From the sequence record OP870144.1: a stretch of DNA of 64,000 nucleotides. One strand, given 5' to 3'. A program made the translations under genes and the position numbers. The DNA comes from Escherichia phage vB_Eco_F25. Positions 2,387 through 37,254 of this stretch are shown here, piece by piece; the first letter of the stretch is position 1, and each line of letters starts with the position of its first letter. The notes below the pieces were generated by a model. It worked only from the letters and a program-made list of their open reading frames with translations. It had not been told where the DNA came from and did no database searches.

Positions 2387-3589
2387 TTATTTTGTAATAA
2401 TGTCAAACTGCTCTTTAAAGCAGAAGCTTGAATCTTGATGCTGATACAAAAATTCATAAGCTTTTTCGCGTTCACGGTCATAAAGAGCTCGGTCAGATGA
2501 CAGTTCTTTAATACGTTCAAATGTTGATTCCATGTCATTTTCATCAAACCAAACGATACCGCTATCGTGCGAAATTAATGGAGTATTATCAACACGGAAT
2601 TTTAAATTTTCGCCAGTAGATTTCCAAAATACTGGAATTGTTCCACATGCACCAAGCTCGAGATGAGTATATTCTAAAGAACGCTGTAGATATTTTTTAT
2701 CTAATTTACTCAGCTGATAACCAAATCCGGATTTACTCATGCGTTCAAGCATTTCGCTATTTACATAACGGTCGAGAATTTGCGTCGGCAAATTAGGAGC
2801 AATTTTAATTTGGTCTACTTGATGAAGACGATAATACTCGTATGGAATTCCTTTTTCTTTAATAGGAATGAACGCTGGAGAACGTTCCAGACCTTCCATA
2901 ATAGTACTTAGTCCTGCAGGTTTAAGATGTTTTTCGTGAAAATCAAACATCTGATAAAAGCCTTTCCATGTAGTAGTACGACCAATCCAACGGTTGATAT
3001 TCATGTTAATTTCAGAAACATCTTTCCAGTAAGTTGATCGAACCTTCGCAATATCCATAGGAGGCTGAAAGTTATATACAGTCGGTGCTTCTTCAATATC
3101 ATCAAACAGTGAAACAGTTTCTGGATACCATTCTTTCATTAAAACTTTATTAAAATCGCCATTATCAGAATGGCTAAAAATAACATCAGCTCGACGAACA
3201 GTTTCTTCTAATCCCAAATTTCGACGCAAAGAAAGAGAAGAATGGTCATGCTGATAAACTACAACACGAACCGAAGGTTTAATGTTATCAATAATTTTTT
3301 TATAGTTATTAATCGTGTCTTCTTCAACTGAAGTAGCAGGAACTGAATTGATAACTAGAATATCACAATCATTTACCAACTTAAGTGTTTTATCGTATTC
3401 TTTTGCCAATAAAACCGGAATTGAAAATGATTTATAATCATGCGCGCAATTACGAGTAAATGATTTATCTTTAGCATAAACCAAAGTTACTTCATGACCA
3501 TTTTTAATAAACCAATCACGCTGCTCAAGAGAAAATTTAGTTACACCGCAACCTTCAAGACCTCGAGCCATAAAAATGCATACTTTCAT
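2387..3589 (-). CDS. a-gt: alpha-glucosyltransferase (glucosylation of hydroxymethylcytosine DNA)
   Basis: 400 aa, same length as T4 a-gt; N-terminus MKVCIFMARGLEGCGVTKFSLEQRDWF. Confidence 0.9.
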   Translation of the reverse strand: MKVCIFMARGLEGCGVTKFSLEQRDWFIKNGHEVTLVYAKDKSFTRNCAHDYKSFSIPVLLAKEYDKTLKLVNDCDILVINSVPATSVEEDTINNYKKIIDNIKPSVRVVVYQHDHSSLSLRRNLGLEETVRRADVIFSHSDNGDFNKVLMKEWYPETVSLFDDIEEAPTVYNFQPPMDIAKVRSTYWKDVSEINMNINRWIGRTTTWKGFYQMFDFHEKHLKPAGLSTIMEGLERSPAFIPIKEKGIPYEYYRLHQVDQIKIAPNLPTQILDRYVNSEMLERMSKSGFGYQLSKLDKKYLQRSLEYTHLELGACGTIPVFWKSTGENLKFRVDNTPLISHDSGIVWFDENDMESTFERIKELSSDRALYDREREKAYEFLYQHQDSSFCFKEQFDIITK

Positions 3590-5645: not shown

Positions 5646-5972
5646 TTATACCTTAGTAATTTTCAGATCAGCAAATTTTTTCTTGCGTTGATTTTTCATA
5701 CGACGAATAGTTTTATCAGAAATTTCATGCTTTTGATAAGCTTTAGATTCTACACCAAAAGCTTTAACATCAAATTCTGACAAGATATATTGAACCAACA
5801 ATTCACGAATAGTATTTCGTCCAATTTTCTGATCATTCTGTTTCATCATCTGATGAAGCTCTTTTTCCCATTTATCCAAAATTTGAGGAGTTACAATATC
5901 GCCTTTTTCTAGCAGAGAAACTACTTTATCATATGCATAAGAATTGATGGCGTTTTTAATTTGAATAGTCAT
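5646..5972 (-). CDS. hypothetical protein (108 aa)
   Basis: ORF with coherent coding composition. Confidence 0.55.
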   Translation of the reverse strand: MTIQIKNAINSYAYDKVVSLLEKGDIVTPQILDKWEKELHQMMKQNDQKIGRNTIRELLVQYILSEFDVKAFGVESKAYQKHEISDKTIRRMKNQRKKKFADLKITKV

Positions 5973-6002
5973 ACATTATCCTCAATTGCGTTAAAATTTT
6001 AT

Positions 6003-6991: not shown

Positions 6992-7315
6992 TTAGTCTTC
7001 TATGATATCTCTATCATATCCAAGTGAAATGAGAGTTTCTTTGAAGTGTTTAATGTTCTTTTGTCTAGAATCATTAATGAAAATGACTGGATAACGAATG
7101 TTAAGAGATGTGAATCCAGCGCGTTTAGCAAGAGATACAATCAGTGGACGATCATACTCAATCTTGCCATTATTTGTAAGAACTTTATAGAAAGTAAAAG
7201 GAGCATTGAGCTCCTTTAGAAGTTTTGTAACTGATTGACATCCAGGACAACGACCTACTTCTTCGGGGATGCCATAGATTTCAATCTTATTCTTTAAGTT
7301 CGAGTTTTGTTCCAC
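6992..7315 (-). CDS. nrdH: NrdH-like glutaredoxin/thioredoxin-fold protein (CPGC active site)
   Basis: C-terminal ~97 aa KIEIYGIPEEVGRCPGCQSV...; no in-frame ATG before the redox motif, so start placed at GTG with SD AAGGA (ATT also possible). Confidence 0.6.
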   Translation of the reverse strand: MEQNSNLKNKIEIYGIPEEVGRCPGCQSVTKLLKELNAPFTFYKVLTNNGKIEYDRPLIVSLAKRAGFTSLNIRYPVIFINDSRQKNIKHFKETLISLGYDRDIIED

Positions 7316-30434: not shown

Positions 30435-31013
30435 TTAATTACCACGGGCTGCATTAGCAACGGCATAAGCGTACTGAACATTAGCGTCCTTAAACGTACC
30501 TTTAGAGGTATCTATTTCTGCCTTAAAGCCGCCTTTAGCCATAACATCGGCAAATTCTTTACGGAAAGCCATTGCATCAAGACCTTTCCATGATGATTTG
30601 TGCTTAGCGAATTCAAGACCAGCGTAGTTGACAGCCTTAGCTAATTTATTATCAATGACCCATTTACCGGCTTTAGGCACAAACTTCGGGCCTTTTTGTT
30701 TAGAGAACAGTTTTAAATTCCAGCGACGAAGATCACTGTCGGCTTTAACAAAAGCTGCGTCTAAGTTACTAGCAACAACATCTTCAATATGAGCAAATTT
30801 AAGTCCGTCAACTTCAATATTTAAATCGGTACGCCAGCGAAGTCCTTCCCAAGCGAAAGCTTTAAAATCGGAAGCTTTTGTAGCTAAGTATCGTTCAATA
30901 GGGGCTGTTTTAGGGTCAAAGCCGTTTCCACCACGATAGTTCCACTCGTCCTTATTAATGCCTTTTGCCTTTACTACAGAAGCTTCAGCAATAAATTCTT
31001 GATACGTTTTCAT
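30435..31013 (-). CDS. ipIII: internal head protein, IPIII-like, with capsid-targeting sequence
   Basis: N-terminal CTS MKTYQEFIAEA (prohead protease motif IAE-A); 192 aa, close to T4 IPIII size. Confidence 0.7.
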   Translation of the reverse strand: MKTYQEFIAEASVVKAKGINKDEWNYRGGNGFDPKTAPIERYLATKASDFKAFAWEGLRWRTDLNIEVDGLKFAHIEDVVASNLDAAFVKADSDLRRWNLKLFSKQKGPKFVPKAGKWVIDNKLAKAVNYAGLEFAKHKSSWKGLDAMAFRKEFADVMAKGGFKAEIDTSKGTFKDANVQYAYAVANAARGN

Positions 31014-31076: not shown

Positions 31077-31337
31077 TTAAGCTTTACCGCCAGAAATAAT
31101 TCCGAAGTTGTTAAAATCATATCCAATATCGTCAACATCTACTTTAGGGCTTGCTACAACATAAGCAATTTCACTACGTTTTGCATAGGTGTTTATTTCT
31201 CTACCATCGCCGCCTAGGAAAGAATACCCATTACGTTTTAATGAGACAAAATCTTCGGCATCACCAACGAAAGCTTTAACTTTAAATTTGGGGCCTTTGG
31301 CATCTGCTTCAGCGATAAATTCTTGATACATTTTCAT
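31077..31337 (-). CDS. ipII: internal head protein, IPII-like, with capsid-targeting sequence
   Basis: N-terminal MKMYQEFIAEA CTS; 86 aa. Confidence 0.6.
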   Translation of the reverse strand: MKMYQEFIAEADAKGPKFKVKAFVGDAEDFVSLKRNGYSFLGGDGREINTYAKRSEIAYVVASPKVDVDDIGYDFNNFGIISGGKA

Positions 31338-31790: not shown

Positions 31791-32617
<827 letters not shown>

Positions 32618-33058
32618 TTAAAAGAGGTTGTTCATTATTCGGTAAAGTGAAGGACCCATCACATATTGCCACTGGGTACGAGGAATAAGAGCAAAAGCAT
32701 CCATCTCTGGAATCATAACGCCATCTTTATTTTCAAAATAAGACCCACAATGGCAATTTCTAAACATCTCATGCTCTACTGGAATCGTATAATAAAATAA
32801 CTGAAGGTCTTTATTACTAGAATATTTAAATACACCTAGGTCTTCTAGAAGGTCTGGATTATAATTGCTAAAACCAGTCTCTTCTAAACATTCTCTTCGT
32901 GCTGCATCTAGTGCGCTCAAATCAGAATTTTCTACACGGCCCTTTGGAATATCCCAGCGATGTGCCATCATTCCAGGCTTACGAGAACCAGTAACCCGTC
33001 CCATGAATAAATCTTTATCTTCTGTCATAAAGATAATACCAGCTGATAATGTTTTCAT
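32618..33058 (-). CDS. nudE: Nudix hydrolase
   Basis: Nudix box GRVENSDLSALDAARRECLEETG; ATG at 33058 with SD AGGA (track start 33073 is also ATG). Confidence 0.8.
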   Translation of the reverse strand: MKTLSAGIIFMTEDKDLFMGRVTGSRKPGMMAHRWDIPKGRVENSDLSALDAARRECLEETGFSNYNPDLLEDLGVFKYSSNKDLQLFYYTIPVEHEMFRNCHCGSYFENKDGVMIPEMDAFALIPRTQWQYVMGPSLYRIMNNLF

Positions 33059-33444
33059 TTTAATTTCCTGCATTCGGTGATAAAGTTATTTAAATTTTGA
33101 GTATATTTCTTTTCATCAAAAATCTTTTGTTGTCTGCGTAGCCGCCATGGCATTTCAATGAACGTGTACCATATCCCAGATAATATTGCTGCTGTAAAAA
33201 TATTAACAAGTATGGTTAAAAGAATCCAATCTTCTATTCTGTCCATTGGATTTTTTATGAAAAAGTAAAATACGAATGATGTCACAGGAAGACTAATAAT
33301 ATACCACAGAATCATAATTTTATCTGTGAACCAATCAGCGTTCGTTAACTTAGCGCTGCCATTTTGAATACATACAAACTTATCATCTGTTGCAGTAGAT
33401 GGCTTAACTGGTTGATATCCCATTCTAAACTCCCTAATCAACAA
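33055..33444 (-). CDS. membrane protein, paralog family member 1
   Basis: Two hydrophobic segments; C-terminal motif FITECRKLK. Confidence 0.5.
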   Translation of the reverse strand: MLIREFRMGYQPVKPSTATDDKFVCIQNGSAKLTNADWFTDKIMILWYIISLPVTSFVFYFFIKNPMDRIEDWILLTILVNIFTAAILSGIWYTFIEMPWRLRRQQKIFDEKKYTQNLNNFITECRKLK

Positions 33445-33538
33445 ATTTTCATATCTTCGGAACAGCCATTCCAGTCAACTCTATCAACTGGAATGCCATC
33501 ATCCCCATCATCTAAATCATACCAGCGAGTTTTTAAAA

Positions 33539-33901
33539 TCATTTAATTTTCCTACAATCACTCACAAACTCTTCCATTGATTCTTTTTCAATATAAGACA
33601 TGTAGTTATTATATTCCTTTAATTGTATTTTGTAATCCTTTTTTCTTTGCCAATTTATTTTAAAATTATCATAATGAAAATATAGCATGGTACCAAAGAA
33701 TGAAAATAATGAAATCGCTATAGTATAACGAAGTTCGCTCCAAACCTCTGTTATAATTGCTGAACTATCGACGTTTAAAATAAAACAGTCAATCATTAGT
33801 CCAATAAGACTACCCGCAAGAGCTGCAAATACTGATACGGCAAGAATTAATAGTGCCTCAAGAAACGAATATTTGACTTTATTTAGTTTTGGCTTTTGCA
33901 T
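33539..33901 (-). CDS. membrane protein, paralog family member 2
   Basis: Two hydrophobic segments; C-terminal motif FVSDCRKIK. Confidence 0.5.
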   Translation of the reverse strand: MQKPKLNKVKYSFLEALLILAVSVFAALAGSLIGLMIDCFILNVDSSAIITEVWSELRYTIAISLFSFFGTMLYFHYDNFKINWQRKKDYKIQLKEYNNYMSYIEKESMEEFVSDCRKIK

Positions 33902-34275
33902 CGTGATTCCTTAACAAATTTCATAATTTCATCAAATTCATACGCAGCAAGTTTAAGCTGATGTTCCTTTTTAATCTTTTTACACTGAGCTTTCCATTCA
34001 CGTACGCGTTTACGATAATGTCTTCCTTGATACCAGTATCCTACCCAATTTACAGGTACTAATAAAAGCGGAATTATTAATGGAAGAATTAGCGTTGCTC
34101 CAAATATTACACCGGATTCAATATCAGTCATAACGTCTATAACCATTCCAGCAATCAGCAGAATCACAAATGATACAGCTACCACAGGACCCATTAATAC
34201 ATCAGTAGAAATTATCTGGCGCTTTGGCTCATACTTCAAAGGTTTACTCGGAAGGTATAGTGATGGCTTTGACAT
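33883..34275 (-). CDS. membrane protein, paralog family member 3
   Basis: Hydrophobic segments; C-terminal FVKESRCKSQN; ATG at 34275 avoids overlap (track start 34296). Confidence 0.5.
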   Translation of the reverse strand: MSKPSLYLPSKPLKYEPKRQIISTDVLMGPVVAVSFVILLIAGMVIDVMTDIESGVIFGATLILPLIIPLLLVPVNWVGYWYQGRHYRKRVREWKAQCKKIKKEHQLKLAAYEFDEIMKFVKESRCKSQN

Positions 34276-34852
34276 ATTCTCTACATTCCTTAACAAATTT
34301 TTCTAATAATAAATCGCTTTCAAAATTAGGATTTTCTACGAATTTATCAAAAAGATCATCAACAATAGTAAAGATATTCTTTTTACTAAGAATACGCTTA
34401 TTTTCATATTTTGTTTCAGAGTCAACTATAAGAGTAAAGAAATATTTCTTTCCCTGAAATTTTACTGTAGTATCAATATAAAATAAATTTGACTTTTGTA
34501 AATTACGTCTAAACCCCGCGTCACTTAAACTATAAATGCCAAGATAGTCATAATCGTCGTTTAAATAACAAACTGTCCATTCAGGAGAAATGAAATCAGT
34601 AAATTCAACATCAAAATCACATGTCAATGAATGAATTGATTCAATACTGTTAATAAGTATTCCAGGACGTATTAAAGACTTTTTACCTCTATAAAATCTT
34701 CCAGAAAGACTTTCGTCAGTTTCATATGAAGACCCCCAATAGTAATTACGTCCTTCTGCCATACGTTTAAGAACATTTAGTAATTGGTCTGGAACATCAA
34801 CATGTCTTTGGAACTCTTCAAACATTGAATTGAAATCATTTTGCATTCTCAT
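34244..34852 (-). CDS. hypothetical protein (202 aa)
   Basis: Track ORF. Confidence 0.5.
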   Translation of the reverse strand: MRMQNDFNSMFEEFQRHVDVPDQLLNVLKRMAEGRNYYWGSSYETDESLSGRFYRGKKSLIRPGILINSIESIHSLTCDFDVEFTDFISPEWTVCYLNDDYDYLGIYSLSDAGFRRNLQKSNLFYIDTTVKFQGKKYFFTLIVDSETKYENKRILSKKNIFTIVDDLFDKFVENPNFESDLLLEKFVKECREYVKAITIPSE

Positions 34853-34867
34853 TCCTATTTACTCCAG

Positions 34868-34890
34868 TAATAGGGGCCGAAGCCCCTTAT
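34868..34890 (-). terminator. possible terminator hairpin
   Basis: GGGGC-TTCG-GCCCC hairpin; weak U-tract. Confidence 0.4.
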
Positions 34891-34892
34891 CA

Positions 34893-35486
34893 TTATTTCA
34901 GAGAATTAATGTATTCCTGAACATCGGCAGAAGTGGTTTCAACCCCAGAAATATTACCGTTAAAGGTTTCAACTCGAGCAAGAGTATCTTCAATATCAAC
35001 CTTAGTTAGCGCTGCGATTTCAACTACATCATCGGCAGTACTAATTCCAAGGGCATTTGCCGCACGAGTTTCACGGATATATTCCAATTTAACTGCAAGT
35101 TCTTGGCGAGCATCATCTAACTCAACTACTTTCTTGGCGATTTCAATTCGCATTTCAGCATAACCATCAGCCTTAGTAGTCAACTGTTCAGCTGTTCGAC
35201 GATATAGCAAACCGAGTTTAGCATGCATTGTTACATCTTGACCCTCGGAAAGAAGCTTGCGAATTTCACGCTCTTTTGATTCGGCTTGTCGATTCTTTTC
35301 GATAACAAGTTCACGAATACGTTTTTCTTCATTAATAGATTTAACAGAAGCAGTTTTTAGATCTTTAATTTTATCAAGCAGTTTTGCTGCTGCAGCAGTA
35401 TACTGTTCTTCAACAGATAGATTTTTAGCCATAGCAGAACCAAGTTTAGTGCGAATAAACTCAACAATTTTCTTCAGTGTGTTCAT
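34893..35486 (-). CDS. all-helical coiled-coil protein (weak PspA/IM30-like character)
   Basis: 197 aa, heptad-rich, Ala/Glu/Lys-rich throughout. Confidence 0.5.
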
Positions 35487-35587
35487 AGTATTTCCTTAGG
35501 TTAATTGAGATTTAAAATCCGTAGGAGTATAATACTCTATCGTCAAATTATAGGCTCATAATATCTCAATCATGAGCCCGTGTAAAC

Positions 35588-35851
35588 TTATTTCATATTA
35601 TTGAAATATTCTTCTGCGATTTCATCGTTATCATGGTAAACTTTAGAAGACAGTTTAACATAACCTTCAGCAGTGAACATATTAATCACAACTTTTACAG
35701 TATACCACTGACCGTCTTCATTACCCATTACTGCGTAAGTTTCAAACATCGGATGGTCAGGACCGATGACTTTAATATCATTCACTGTACGACCGAAATC
35801 TTCTGAAACGCATTTCATAAAGAAGTTGAACAGTTCGCCGTAATTATCCAT
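35588..35851 (-). CDS. hypothetical protein (87 aa)
   Basis: ATG at 35851 with SD GGAG (track start is a TTG artefact). Confidence 0.5.
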   Translation of the reverse strand: MDNYGELFNFFMKCVSEDFGRTVNDIKVIGPDHPMFETYAVMGNEDGQWYTVKVVINMFTAEGYVKLSSKVYHDNDEIAEEYFNNMK

Positions 35852-36091: not shown

Positions 36092-36655
36092 TTATTTATC
36101 TAGTTTAGTTATTATAGCTTCTGCGGCAGCTTTTAGCTTAGATGCGGTGTTAATACGATTTTTAATTTCAGTATACGCATCGCCAAGAACATCAAGGCTA
36201 TCAGAATAAACGCTTACACTATTGCGTTCGCTATTTGAAATAGAACCTTTAGTTTTACGATCAAAATCGATGTACACGTCTTGAAGATCACGGGCTGCCT
36301 TCTTTGCATCATCCAATGCATCAAGAGCTTTATTCAAAGCATTAACGTATTTTTTAGTGTCGAACATATTCTTAGAAATTTTAACAGGCGCACGTTCAGG
36401 AGTAGCTAAGGCAGATTTAGGAACCTGAGCGCCAGATGCCAGTTTCTTAGAAATTTTGAAAAATGCTTTATTGAATTTATTTTCTTGACTCATCGTAAAA
36501 GAACTATTATCAATGTTATACATTTCAATAGCTTTAGCTTTCCACTTAAGAAAATCGCCACGGTCTTTTGGGTCCAATTGGAAGAATACTTTAGTAAGTT
36601 CTGCTTCAGATGGTAATTTTGCTGCTTCGGTTAAAAATTCGGCATAGGTTTTCAT
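36092..36655 (-). CDS. capsid-targeted (internal-protein-like) protein, 187 aa
   Basis: N-terminal MKTYAEFLTEA CTS; Lys/Ala-rich. Confidence 0.6.
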   Translation of the reverse strand: MKTYAEFLTEAAKLPSEAELTKVFFQLDPKDRGDFLKWKAKAIEMYNIDNSSFTMSQENKFNKAFFKISKKLASGAQVPKSALATPERAPVKISKNMFDTKKYVNALNKALDALDDAKKAARDLQDVYIDFDRKTKGSISNSERNSVSVYSDSLDVLGDAYTEIKNRINTASKLKAAAEAIITKLDK

Positions 36656-36780: not shown

Positions 36781-37254
36781 TTATTTGATTTGTTTAGCAG
36801 ACCAAATGCGGTCTTTGATGATTTTTTGGAGATCTTCAACATACTCTAGGTCATGAGCATGTGGATTATCTTTGAAACTATAGGCACGGGCTAATTTTTG
36901 GCCTTCGGTTTTAATTACTAAAAGCTCTTTAAGGATAGCTTCATATTTAGCGATAATTCCTTTAACAATATTTTTTTCTTGTGCAGCTTTAGGATCTGCT
37001 TTAGGAGCAGGTTTACCGGAAGGTTTTTCGAAAGCCGCACCAGTAGCAACCAGACTTTTCCAGGCGGTGGTAACATAGTTACCCACAAAGCCTTCAGCTC
37101 TCATATCGTCGTAGAACTTGTACCGGGATTCGTCAGAAGCATCTTTATAAGAATATTTACCAGATTTAATAGCAGCAGTTGCTACAGCGCGAACATCTGA
37201 AGCGGATGCTTCATTTAACACCGCTTCATTTAAAAATTGAGCATATGATTTCAT
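36781..37254 (-). CDS. capsid-targeted (internal-protein-like) protein, 157 aa
   Basis: N-terminal MKSYAQFLNEA CTS-like sequence; late-promoter-like TATAAATA upstream. Confidence 0.6.
   Translation of the reverse strand: MKSYAQFLNEAVLNEASASDVRAVATAAIKSGKYSYKDASDESRYKFYDDMRAEGFVGNYVTTAWKSLVATGAAFEKPSGKPAPKADPKAAQEKNIVKGIIAKYEAILKELLVIKTEGQKLARAYSFKDNPHAHDLEYVEDLQKIIKDRIWSAKQIK

Follow-up and report, generated by a model that had tools for sequence, protein, structure and literature searches.

A C-terminal tail shared by the T4-type early proteins e.2, e.3 and e.5, and weakly by e.4

Introduction

Do small phage proteins that end alike share an ancestor, a function, or neither? Three consecutive minus-strand open reading frames (ORFs) in a 64,000-nucleotide stretch of Escherichia phage vB_Eco_F25 (record OP870144.1; the whole stretch is called the window here) pose this question. 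The source is of Tequatrovirus (T4-like phage) type, and a first-pass annotation had described the three ORFs as a tandem array of paralogous small membrane proteins next to the lysozyme and nudE genes, with a conserved C-terminal motif and a probable role in superinfection exclusion or lysis timing. The three ORFs and the C-termini quoted for them proved exact; the observation as a whole is partly confirmed, and its interpretation partly supported, by the analysis described here.

Results

Identity of the locus

Synteny with T4 together with PHROG matches identified the three ORFs as e.2, e.3 and e.4, and by sequence comparison their orthology to the T4 genes of these names is unambiguous. 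They are direct orthologues lying in the same place as in T4, between e.5 and nudE, with roughly 80–90% protein identity to their T4 counterparts and, for e.3 and e.4, equal lengths and C-termini. Three separate PHROG families hold them: e.2 matched phrog_2203 (E=7.3e-58, profile positions 35–166), while e.3, placed between e.4 and e.2, matched phrog_2330 as a full-length member (E=3.7e-56, residues 1–118) and e.4, placed between e.5 and e.3, did likewise with phrog_2604 (E=7.5e-70). Newer Pfam families cover e.2 (PF26896, Phage_T4_Y06M), e.4 (PF26873, Phage_T4_Y06O) and e.5 (Phage_T4_Y06P), T4 e.2, e.3 and e.4 being named Y06M, Y06N and Y06O in UniProt. PF26896 is carried by nearly all e.2 homologues, which the e.2 sequence here matches, and PF26873 by 98 of 98 e.4 homologues; the homologues of e.3 number 45, at 71–93% identity. 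The locus is common to 690 phage records. With e.3 as the query, only four close loci were retrieved from IMG/VR, and an e.3 profile run against 1.84 billion representatives gave seven matches, all of them e.3 orthologues or fragments.

In the supplements of PMC9697503 and PMC11879866, T4 e.2–e.4 appear as 'conserved hypothetical, predicted membrane protein'; our literature searches found no functional study of e.2–e.5. These are already catalogued, uncharacterised T4 early genes that have stood as hypothetical membrane ORFs for decades, and meeting them here is a rediscovery. What is new is a modest observation on the shared tail of known genes.

The e.3 orthologue (33539..33901, minus strand, 120 aa), assigned from PHROG, synteny, hydropathy and AF2, ends in EFVSDCRKIK and has a conserved 43-aa tail predicted to be cytoplasmic. 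The e.4 orthologue (33883..34275, minus strand, 130 aa) has two clear transmembrane (TM) segments and a basic helical tail of 48 aa ending in KFVKESRCKSQN, and its 3' end overlaps the start of e.3 by 19 nt. Its start lies at 34275, the equivalent start being used in all orthologues, and the position 34296 given earlier as the end of the array has to be withdrawn. Upstream, and with its 3' end overlapping the start of e.4 by 32 nt, lies the e.5 orthologue (34244..34852, minus strand, 202 aa), a soluble protein in which hydropathy found no hydrophobic segment and which carries EKFVKECREY 11 residues before its stop.

A frameshifted e.2 allele

The ORF at 33055..33444, previously taken for an intact gene, is part of a split e.2. 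Alignment with T4 and three-frame translation located a 1-nt deletion at about 33447/33448, where one G is lost in ATGAA(G)AAT; the ancestral 162-aa e.2 thereby becomes a 34-aa ORF and a 122-aa ORF, and no intact 162-aa frame was found in the window. The N-terminal remnant (33438..33542, minus strand, 34 aa), recognised by the T4 alignment and intact 162-aa orthologues, reads MILKTRWYDLDDGDDG...MKIC, its start overlapping the e.3 stop (ATGA). The C-terminal ORF (33055..33423, minus strand, 122 aa) begins at an ATG at 33423 that is preceded by GGGAG, the TTG start at 33444 being an artefact of the ORF caller. Both TM segments are kept, as is the tail with NFITECRKLK at its end. The stop codon of this ORF overlaps the start of nudE in the sequence ATGA, and the protein is 100% identical to the 122-aa protein of phage vB_Eco_F25 (P0145). 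The internal GGGAG-N6-ATG (M41 of e.2) is conserved and may be a second natural start.

Most relatives carry an intact 162-aa e.2 (42 of 56 sequence clusters), unlike both the window, whose split near the 5' end gives the 122-aa form (four clusters), and T4 itself, whose own e.2 is cut after TM1 by another frameshift (the 102-aa form, in two clusters). The e.2 of the window is a rare frameshifted allele in which hairpin and tail are still encoded. Truncation of e.2 is frequent in nature, T4 included, which suggests that whatever e.2 does is no more than weak or conditional. In five phages e.4 and e.2 are joined in frame at a 7-nt microhomology (e.4::e.2), and natural loss or fusion alleles exist at this locus. 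Two further proteins in which e.4 or e.2 fragments are fused to HTH proteins (P0143, P0199) come from contigs under 1 kb; they are probably chimeras of the assembly and were disregarded.

Hairpin and tail architecture

Each of the three proteins had been described as having two hydrophobic segments. By hydropathy this is clear for e.2 and e.4, whereas in e.3 a strong first segment is followed by a weaker, aromatic-rich one that stays below the Kyte-Doolittle threshold of 1.6. In the AF2 models of e.3 (pLDDT 70) and e.4 (pLDDT 74) two helices fold into a hairpin, and the second of them is prolonged into a long helix at the C-terminus; the helices span residues 13–42 and 46–119 of e.3 and 24–49, 54–110 and 114–123 of e.4. 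A predicted architecture of two TM helices and a helical tail is common to the three proteins, on the basis of hydropathy and, for e.3 and e.4, of the AF2 models. The positive-inside rule predicts that both termini of e.2, e.3 and e.4 are cytoplasmic, leaving a predicted periplasmic loop of 6–15 residues that is among the least conserved segments. Mean pairwise identity is 0.90–0.93 in the tails, compared with 0.44–0.83 in the TM segments and loops. The N-termini of e.3 and e.4 both read M-[QS]-K-P. In Foldseek searches of viral predicted structures e.4 matched its own orthologues alone and e.3 had no match; a helical hairpin is too simple a fold for such searches to say much.

The similarity lies in the tail

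Pairwise alignment, proposed earlier as a check on paralogy, gave BLASTP E-values of 0.003, 0.075 and 0.05 among e.2, e.3 and e.4, with the C-terminus alone covered. Whole-protein similarity was not detected by hhalign with Tequatrovirus-only alignments, which returned probabilities of 9.7%, 1.2% and 0.6% from too little diversity (Neff 1.3–1.8) and aligned only the motif. We also ran hhalign with enriched alignments, in global and local modes and against an architecture-preserving null. Once the motif was removed, z was about 0 for both e.2–e.3 and e.2–e.4, and e.3–e.4 was marginal (z 1.6–2.1), the observed score being reached by 1–2 of 40 shuffles.

Tail-only profiles, by comparison, matched for e.2–e.3 (92%, P 5e-7), e.2–e.5 (88%, P 3e-6), e.3–e.5 (85%, P 6e-6) and e.3–e.4 (37%, P 4e-4, z 5.3), each exceeding 40 of 40 column shuffles; the e.2–e.4 match was not significant. 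The full-length local alignment of e.3 with e.4 took in 39 columns, the whole of the tail, at 83% probability. The weakest member is e.4, in whose tail the Cys is shifted by two positions. HMMER profiles run against the six-frame T4 ORFeome gave no cross-family matches and no extra paralogues. Judged by these profile comparisons, paralogy of e.2, e.3 and e.4 is supported for the tail only and is not statistically demonstrable for the whole proteins; the tail is the one robustly homologous module, attached to TM hairpins that vary.

The tail motif and its codons

The motif F-[IV]-x-[ED]-[C/S]-R ends not only e.2, e.3 and e.4 but also the soluble e.5, a fourth carrier that the description of a three-member array had overlooked. 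Within 20 residues of a stop, F[IV]x[ED][CSI]R, a pattern defined after the data were seen, occurs four times in the window, where shuffled sequence would lead one to expect 0.05 copies, and all four fall in the consecutive genes e.5, e.4, e.3 and e.2; the shared C-terminal motif noted at first pass is therefore far above chance. No other genic copy was found in T4 1–50 kb or 119–169 kb, and the T4-type sequence scanned, about 164 kb with the late structural genes at T4 98–119 kb excepted, contained the motif nowhere else. A match at 7064–7081, 'FINDSR', belongs to a glutaredoxin-like protein and is unrelated. The motif recurs in the Mosig-, Dhaka- and Gaprivervirus orthologues, making four genera in all, and in Mosigvirus also sits on a different membrane protein of 78 aa.

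All four sets of motif codons lie on the minus strand, and each shares nucleotides with the translation start of the gene that follows, its ribosome-binding site and start codon. Those of e.2 (FITECR, 33067..33084) are followed by AGG AAA, the nudE Shine-Dalgarno sequence, and those of e.3 (FVSDCR, 33551..33568) by AGG AAA ATT AAA TGA, which holds the Shine-Dalgarno sequence and the overlapping start of e.2. The codons of e.4 (FVKESR, 33901..33921) coincide with one copy (33906–33921) of a 16-nt exact repeat, AAATTTGTTAAGGAAT, that contains the e.3 Shine-Dalgarno sequence (AAGGA); the second copy (34285–34300) lies at the e.5/e.4 junction, where the e.5 codons (FVKECR, 34280..34300) stand just upstream of the e.4 start. 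A promoter scan gave nothing above shuffles. The overlapping Shine-Dalgarno sequences and start codons explain part of the conservation of the motif. At the Arg position of the motif the codons AGA, AGG, CGT, CGC and CGA all occur, and at the Cys position TGT and TGC; with five codons in use for the one and two for the other, selection also acts on the protein. In Dhakavirus e.5 the motif is 9 codons away from the stop, and AAAGAGG serves the following gene as a Shine-Dalgarno sequence of its own.

Expression, dispensability and family searches

According to the supplement of PMC9697503, T4 e.2–e.5 give early RNAs and their proteins are detected by mass spectrometry; the PMC11879866 supplement lists them as 'Not Fit' in CRISPRi-ART, that is, with no fitness effect on knock-down. 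The early timing of the T4 orthologues fits accessory, exclusion or host take-over roles. Searches with the proteins of this locus gave no Pfam match at E<=1, no match to holin or antiholin families in Pfam, PHROGs or NCBIfam, and, for e.2 to e.5, no match to PADLOC defence and immunity profiles at E<=0.1. The proteins could not be placed in the Imm family, the e.3 profile scoring a non-significant E=0.22 against the T4 imm ORF in a database of 1,766 segments. Nothing in Pfam, NCBIfam or PADLOC exceeded its threshold, and weak hits to DUF2269 and to the Bfi1 immunity protein (16 bits, cut-off 100) were dismissed as noise from TM composition. The neighbourhood with nudE and lysozyme, as first reported, is real in Tequatrovirus and is not conserved beyond it: eight other genes stand between e.3 and nudE in a Mosigvirus (G2285), and the Dhaka- and Gaprivervirus stretches have more than ten annotated genes after e.3.

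Discussion

We take e.5-e.4-e.3-e.2 to be a block of early genes whose translation is coupled and which lies upstream of nudE and of e, the lysozyme gene. On this view the products of e.2, e.3 and e.4 are small proteins of the inner membrane; each has a two-helix hairpin in its predicted topology, and the second TM helix extends into a conserved tail of 33–48 aa, predicted to be cytoplasmic. The tail probably opens with a basic juxtamembrane patch and closes with an amphipathic helix of the form hydrophobic-x-x-F-[IV]-x-E-C-[RK], a module in which the soluble e.5 ends as well; the variable TM hairpins probably serve as anchors, and motif codons that double as ribosome-binding site and start region add a constraint at the nucleotide level. 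We hold it to be very likely that the identity of the locus, the hairpin and tail architecture, the shared tail, the dual coding and the e.2 allele are jointly correct.

For the mechanism, we infer with due caution that the C-terminal amphipathic helix could be a docking peptide for one common cytoplasmic partner, of host or phage origin, an idea drawn from the conservation pattern and amphipathicity; alternatively, it may mediate hetero-oligomerisation among e.2, e.3, e.4 and e.5. Early in infection the three membrane versions would then keep the partner tethered to the inner membrane, and the genes would make up a dispensable accessory module for host take-over or counter-defence, not for lysis. 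We regard this mechanism as possible but doubtful, whereas identity and mechanism taken together as the best explanation of the locus seem to us to fall a little short of an even chance. A more specific version, to which we give less credence still, has the four genes act as one module whose docking helix sequesters a single cytoplasmic factor of the host, or a component of a defence system, at the inner membrane in an arms race, which the variable TM hairpins and the frequent gene loss and fusion could reflect.

Superinfection exclusion, in which the envelope is altered so that the DNA of a second phage stays out, as T4 Imm does, has in its favour the early expression of the T4 orthologues (supplement of PMC9697503), their dispensability in single infection, as expected of an exclusion gene (supplement of PMC11879866), a general format of small two-TM inner-membrane proteins that resembles Imm, and TM segments and loops whose differences between phages could reflect specificity. 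It is nevertheless improbable to our minds: there is no similarity to Imm, either as a Pfam match or between the e.3 profile and imm, and conservation, and presumably function with it, resides in the tail that is predicted to be cytoplasmic, the short predicted periplasmic loop being among the least conserved segments, contrary to what a periplasm-facing function predicts. The same tail on soluble e.5 is hard to fit to envelope gating, and most of T4's exclusion phenotype is due to imm and sp. Lysis timing, with the proteins as holins, antiholins or modulators of lysis inhibition acting with the adjacent lysozyme gene e, draws on small size, membrane location and the proximity to nudE and e in Tequatrovirus; we consider it very unlikely, and this part of the first-pass interpretation is weakened. 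A central part in lysis timing is hard to square with early expression (supplement of PMC9697503) and the lack of a knock-down fitness effect (supplement of PMC11879866); searches of Pfam, NCBIfam and PHROGs matched no holin or antiholin family, and the adjacency to e breaks down in Mosig-, Dhaka- and Gaprivervirus, the T4 holin gene t being sited elsewhere in the genome.

The tail itself could be read in two other ways. It might be a by-product of translational coupling in otherwise unrelated membrane proteins with no common function at the protein level, as AGG AAA (Arg-Lys) and AAG GAA (Lys-Glu) are Shine-Dalgarno sequences 5–11 nt before the next ATG, stop and start overlap as ATGA at e.3/e.2 and e.2/nudE, the 16-nt DNA repeat is exact at the e.5/e.4 and e.4/e.3 junctions, and e.2 without the motif has no profile similarity to e.3 or e.4. 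Against this, the F, [IV], E and C positions fall outside the Shine-Dalgarno sequence or only partly inside it, the amino acids are kept while their Arg and Cys codons vary, the reading frame of the motif is always the same, the Dhakavirus e.5 motif lies apart from the AAAGAGG of the next gene, and e.3 and e.4 are similar over 39 tail columns, well past the ribosome-binding site, all of which leaves coupling by itself an unlikely source of the motif. The other reading concerns origin and strikes us as a real but minority possibility: recombination at the junctions between genes, and not whole-gene duplication, would have given unrelated bodies one common 3' cassette that comprises the tail and the translation-initiation region. 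The carriers of the tail are indeed diverse, namely the soluble e.5 of 202 aa, three different TM bodies and the 78-aa TM protein of Mosigvirus; the bodies belong to separate PHROG and Pfam families, e.2 shows no similarity outside the motif, and the locus is recombinationally active, with the e.4::e.2 fusion and independent e.2 frameshifts. However, e.3 and e.4 share their overall architecture, a marginal similarity without the motif and the M-[QS]-K-P start, and short TM proteins that arose by tandem duplication long ago are expected to lose detectable similarity in their TM parts.

Returning to the docking proposal, its sequestration version, if true, would be a previously undescribed membrane-tethering strategy of counter-defence or host take-over in T-even phages, and a tail that docks one host target would open a way to understanding four early genes of T4, which has many that are unassigned. 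The new points at hand are smaller, namely a tail that links e.2, e.3 and, weakly, e.4 with e.5 across four genera, its dual coding with the ribosome-binding site, and the repeated natural frameshifts together with the e.4::e.2 fusion.

Among known systems, T4 Imm is likewise a small early membrane protein that is dispensable in single infection, but the likeness is one of format only: Imm has no detectable sequence relationship to e.2–e.4, lacks their long conserved tail and is encoded at another place in the genome. The T4 holin T, the antiholin RI and RIII are likewise small membrane-associated proteins and are functionally tied to e, but differ from e.2–e.4, which match none of their families, are early, have no knock-down fitness effect and do not keep their adjacency to e. 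Mobile regulatory cassettes, the promoter-early stem-loops, border small ORFs where T4-type genomes are plastic. The repeat in the window resembles them as a short junction repeat in a plastic early region, and may similarly promote recombination and shuffling. It differs in being a translation-initiation region, where those cassettes consist of a promoter and a stem-loop, and in lying inside coding sequence, in one frame, where it encodes a conserved peptide.

Identity of the locus

The window belongs to a Tequatrovirus, and the 3.6-kb stretch around the three minus-strand ORFs (33055–33444, 33539–33901 and 33883–34275) matches 690 phage records, with a top identity of 97%. Compared with the T4 reference, these ORFs fill the positions of e.2, e.3 and e.4 in the e.5-to-nudE interval, with the T4 lysozyme (e), NudE, DenV and internal-protein genes as neighbours in the window, and on sequence comparison they are orthologues of these known T4 ORFs. 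The e.4 start is the ATG at 34275, matching all 130-aa orthologues. Each ORF has its own PHROG family (e.2, phrog_2203, E = 7e-58; e.3, phrog_2330, E = 4e-56; e.4, phrog_2604, E = 8e-70). None of the three gave a Pfam match in the Pfam copy searched, and newer Pfam families were reached through precomputed tags on homologues or contigs (Phage_T4_Y06M for e.2, Y06O for e.4 and Y06P for e.5); the PHROG and newer Pfam assignments therefore mark e.2–e.4 as catalogued but uncharacterised genes. The locus is one of known genes without assigned function. The original observation is real but ordinary, and the new points are modest: a tail module reaching e.5, its overlap with the ribosome-binding site of the next gene, and a damaged e.2 allele. 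Several GenBank/NCBI records name e.3 and e.4 orthologues ‘sulfurtransferase’ or ‘DNA primase’, and e.6 ‘host specificity protein’, which look like propagated annotation errors.

A shared C-terminal tail on two-helix membrane proteins

The C-termini quoted in the first-pass annotation are exact, and its two hydrophobic segments per protein are clear by Kyte-Doolittle analysis in e.2 and e.4, while e.3 pairs a strong segment with a weaker one rich in aromatic residues. AF2 models built on family alignments, of moderate confidence, show the same helical hairpin in e.3 (pLDDT 70; helices 13–42 and 46–119) and e.4 (pLDDT 74; helices 24–49, 54–110 and 114–123), the second helix running on as a long C-terminal helix. 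The e.2–e.4 products are predicted two-helix membrane proteins; their N-termini are basic, their loops acidic and the stretches after the second hydrophobic segment (TM2) very basic, a charge distribution that predicts, under the positive-inside rule, that both termini are cytoplasmic. Within each family the tail, carrying the motif F-[IV]-x-[ED]-[C/S]-R, ranks at or near the top in conservation (mean pairwise identity 0.90–0.93, against 0.44–0.83 for the TM segments and loop).

The three proteins had been described as tandem paralogues. Pairwise BLASTP aligned the C-terminus alone (E = 0.003, 0.075 and 0.05), and hhalign with Tequatrovirus-only family alignments gave probabilities of 9.7%, 1.2% and 0.6%. 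We then used alignments enriched with divergent orthologues from Mosigvirus, Dhakavirus, Gaprivervirus and two metagenomic contigs, with a null in which columns were shuffled only inside each segment (N-terminus, TM1, loop, TM2, tail). For e.3–e.4, the local probability was 83% (P 1e-5) over 39 columns, the whole tail, with z 3.8 (0/40 shuffles), falling to 1.6–2.1 on removal of the motif; for e.2–e.3, it was 68% over 14 columns, the motif only (z 8.4, 0/40 shuffles; z ~0 without the motif); and for e.2–e.4, 1.1% over 29 columns (z 0.7 local, 9/40; 2.2 global, 1/40; z ~0 without the motif). HMMER profiles detected no cross-family relation and no extra paralogue in the six-frame T4 ORFeome, and the e.3 profile retrieved e.3 orthologues only from 1.84 billion representatives. 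The hhalign and HMMER outcomes therefore support a narrower statement than paralogy: the shared C-terminal module and architecture hold, and whole-length homology is not demonstrable with BLASTP, hhalign or HMMER.

The first-pass annotation had overlooked a further copy of the motif in e.5 (34244–34852), a 202-aa protein without a hydrophobic segment, where …EKFVKECREY… lies 11 residues before the stop. In a tail-only profile comparison (last 45 residues; 40 column shuffles as null), the pairs scored 92% (e.2–e.3, P 5e-7), 88% (e.2–e.5, P 3e-6), 85% (e.3–e.5, P 6e-6), 37% (e.3–e.4, P 4e-4), 8% (e.4–e.5, P 0.0045) and 2% (e.2–e.4, P 0.029), every pair but e.2–e.4 lying above 40/40 shuffles. The pattern F[IV]x[ED][CSI]R occurs four times in the window at no more than 20 residues from a stop codon (0.05 expected), and all four copies are those of e.5, e.4, e.3 and e.2; no further genic copy was found in the two T4 stretches scanned, 1–50 kb and 119–169 kb. 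Other genera carry similar tails of the e.5 type (…RKLNRFIAECREY…, …LEQFIMECREY…), e.4 type (…EEFIKEVRNGTA, …MEFVKEIRCKSLNS), e.3 type (…ETFIKECKS, …ENFIKECRK) and e.2 type (…LNDFIEECRK). At the e.2 position of Mosigvirus vB_EcoM_G2285, with a 78-aa gene and nudE downstream of it, lies a different 78-aa hydrophobic membrane protein (5766–6002 of that locus) that contains …RFITECRNLR and ends …VERFITECRNLR; the e.2-type tail therefore sits on another membrane body. Together, these comparisons indicate a conserved tail module common to e.2–e.4 and e.5.

Overlap of the motif with translation initiation

The coding sequence of the motif overlaps the region that initiates translation of the following gene, and the nucleotide sequence indicates dual coding with the downstream ribosome-binding site. 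The 3′ ends of e.3 (TGT AGG AAA ATT AAA TGA) and e.2 (TGC AGG AAA TTA AAA TGA) both contain AGGAAA as the Shine-Dalgarno sequence, the next start lying in the ATGA overlap, and e.4 (33906–33921) and e.5 (34285–34300) have in common an exact 16-nt repeat, AAATTTGTTAAGGAAT, with an AAGGA Shine-Dalgarno inside. This overlap accounts for part of the motif conservation, notably that of the terminal Arg-Lys or Lys-Glu, but not for all of it: the Arg codons vary (AGA, AGG, CGT, CGC, CGA), as do the Cys codons (TGT, TGC), F, [IV] and E keep a single reading frame throughout, and in Dhakavirus e.5 the motif lies 9 codons before the stop, with a separate AAAGAGG for the next gene. The amino acids are thus under selection.

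A frameshifted e.2 allele

The e.2 ORF is disrupted: alignment with T4 shows that one nucleotide of ATGAA(G)AAT has been lost at ~33447/8, a deletion that splits the gene into a 34-aa minus-strand ORF (33438–33542; start in the ATGA overlap with the e.3 stop) and a 122-aa minus-strand ORF starting at ATG 33423, with GGGAG ahead of it. Most e.2 homologue clusters (42/56) have the 162-aa form, 4/56 the 122-aa form and 2/56 the 102-aa T4 form; one 122-aa homologue, from phage vB_Eco_F25, is 100% identical to that of the window. Compared with window 33040–33560, T4 e.2 (102 aa; 3153–3461 of the T4 stretch) is itself a frameshift-truncated allele of the 162-aa gene, cut after TM1, and its frameshift differs from that of the window, making two independent frameshifts in e.2; a compensating +1 insertion ~80 nt downstream comes too late, past the premature stop. 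In the window, the internal ATG at 33423 is the sole route to expression of the TM and tail part. All e.2 orthologues conserve this GGGAG-N6-ATG (window 33423–33435). Its ATG corresponds to M41 of the intact protein, in the invariant stretch LIREFRMGY, and translation could start internally here to give a shorter isoform.

Expression and possible function

In a T4 time-course, the transcripts of e.2, e.3, e.4 and e.5 all fall in the early class, and the protein of each gene was detected (PMC9697503, supplementary files 4 and 6). A CRISPRi-ART screen of T4 scores knock-down of e.2 to e.8, whose essentiality had earlier been listed as unknown, as ‘Not Fit’ (PMC11879866, supplementary files 8 and 15), taken to mean no fitness effect. 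According to these supplementary files, the T4 orthologues are early-expressed and dispensable; we found no functional study of e.2–e.5 in the literature.

The lysis-timing role proposed from the sequence is unlikely, given early genes, no knock-down fitness effect, no holin or antiholin family matches for e.2–e.4, and loss of adjacency to e in other genera. Superinfection exclusion of the Imm type, the other role suggested, is possible but not favoured: conservation lies in the predicted cytoplasmic tail, a segment that the soluble e.5 carries as well, and no sequence similarity was found between T4 Imm and e.2–e.4. The terminal helix of the tail is probably amphipathic, with a hydrophobic face of L/M, F, I/V and C at i, i+3, i+4 and i+7. 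Tentatively, and with considerable doubt, we suggest that this helix might dock onto a partner shared by the four proteins, or link them to one another, and would be membrane-tethered in three of the four.

Plasticity and gene content around the locus

Five isolated phages (vB_EcoM-UFV05, 06, 09, 10 and 11) have e.4 and e.2 joined in frame as a 106-aa fusion, e.4::e.2 (1201–1521 in the vB_EcoM-UFV05 locus), with e.3 deleted. The junction is a 7-nt microhomology, TCCTGTG, coding Pro-Val at the TM1 start in both genes, and this natural fusion implies that, in nature, the phage can dispense with e.3, the tail of e.4 and the N-terminal domain of e.2. Two metagenomic entries (P0143 and P0199; contigs <1 kb) joining e.4 and e.2 fragments to unrelated helix-turn-helix-type sequences were set aside as probable assembly chimeras.

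Five minus-strand ORFs of the window (30435–31013, 31077–31337, 31791–32096, 36092–36655 and 36781–37254) share an N-terminus of the internal-head-protein type, MK(T/S/M)Y(Q/A/S)(E/Q)F(I/L)xE. The window order is e, a 101-aa IP-like ORF, denV, ipII-like and ipIII-like, compared with e, ipIII, ipII, denV in T4; internal-protein genes are thus additional or rearranged in this phage. At 35487–35587 the 336-bp gene e.7, which separates e.6 from e.8 in T4, is missing, e.6 (34893–35486) being followed directly by e.8 (35588–35851). In Dhaka-, Gapriver- and Mosigvirus, a tandem array of at least three small soluble paralogues (65–101 aa) lies directly downstream of e.3 (L010 3282–4070, L011 3303–4082, L012 3357–3869 and L005 2010–2804, in related phage loci), all terminating in G(A/G)W(V/I)SSSxxC; no ORF with this ending was found in the window. 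Between e.6 and e.5 lies a GC-rich hairpin (34872–34887; plus strand AGGGGCCGAAGCCCCT), whose loop is of the UUCG type on the coding strand; the corresponding site in Mosigvirus G2285 has been annotated as a terminator, and the hairpin may mark the 5′ boundary of the translationally coupled e.5-to-nudE block.
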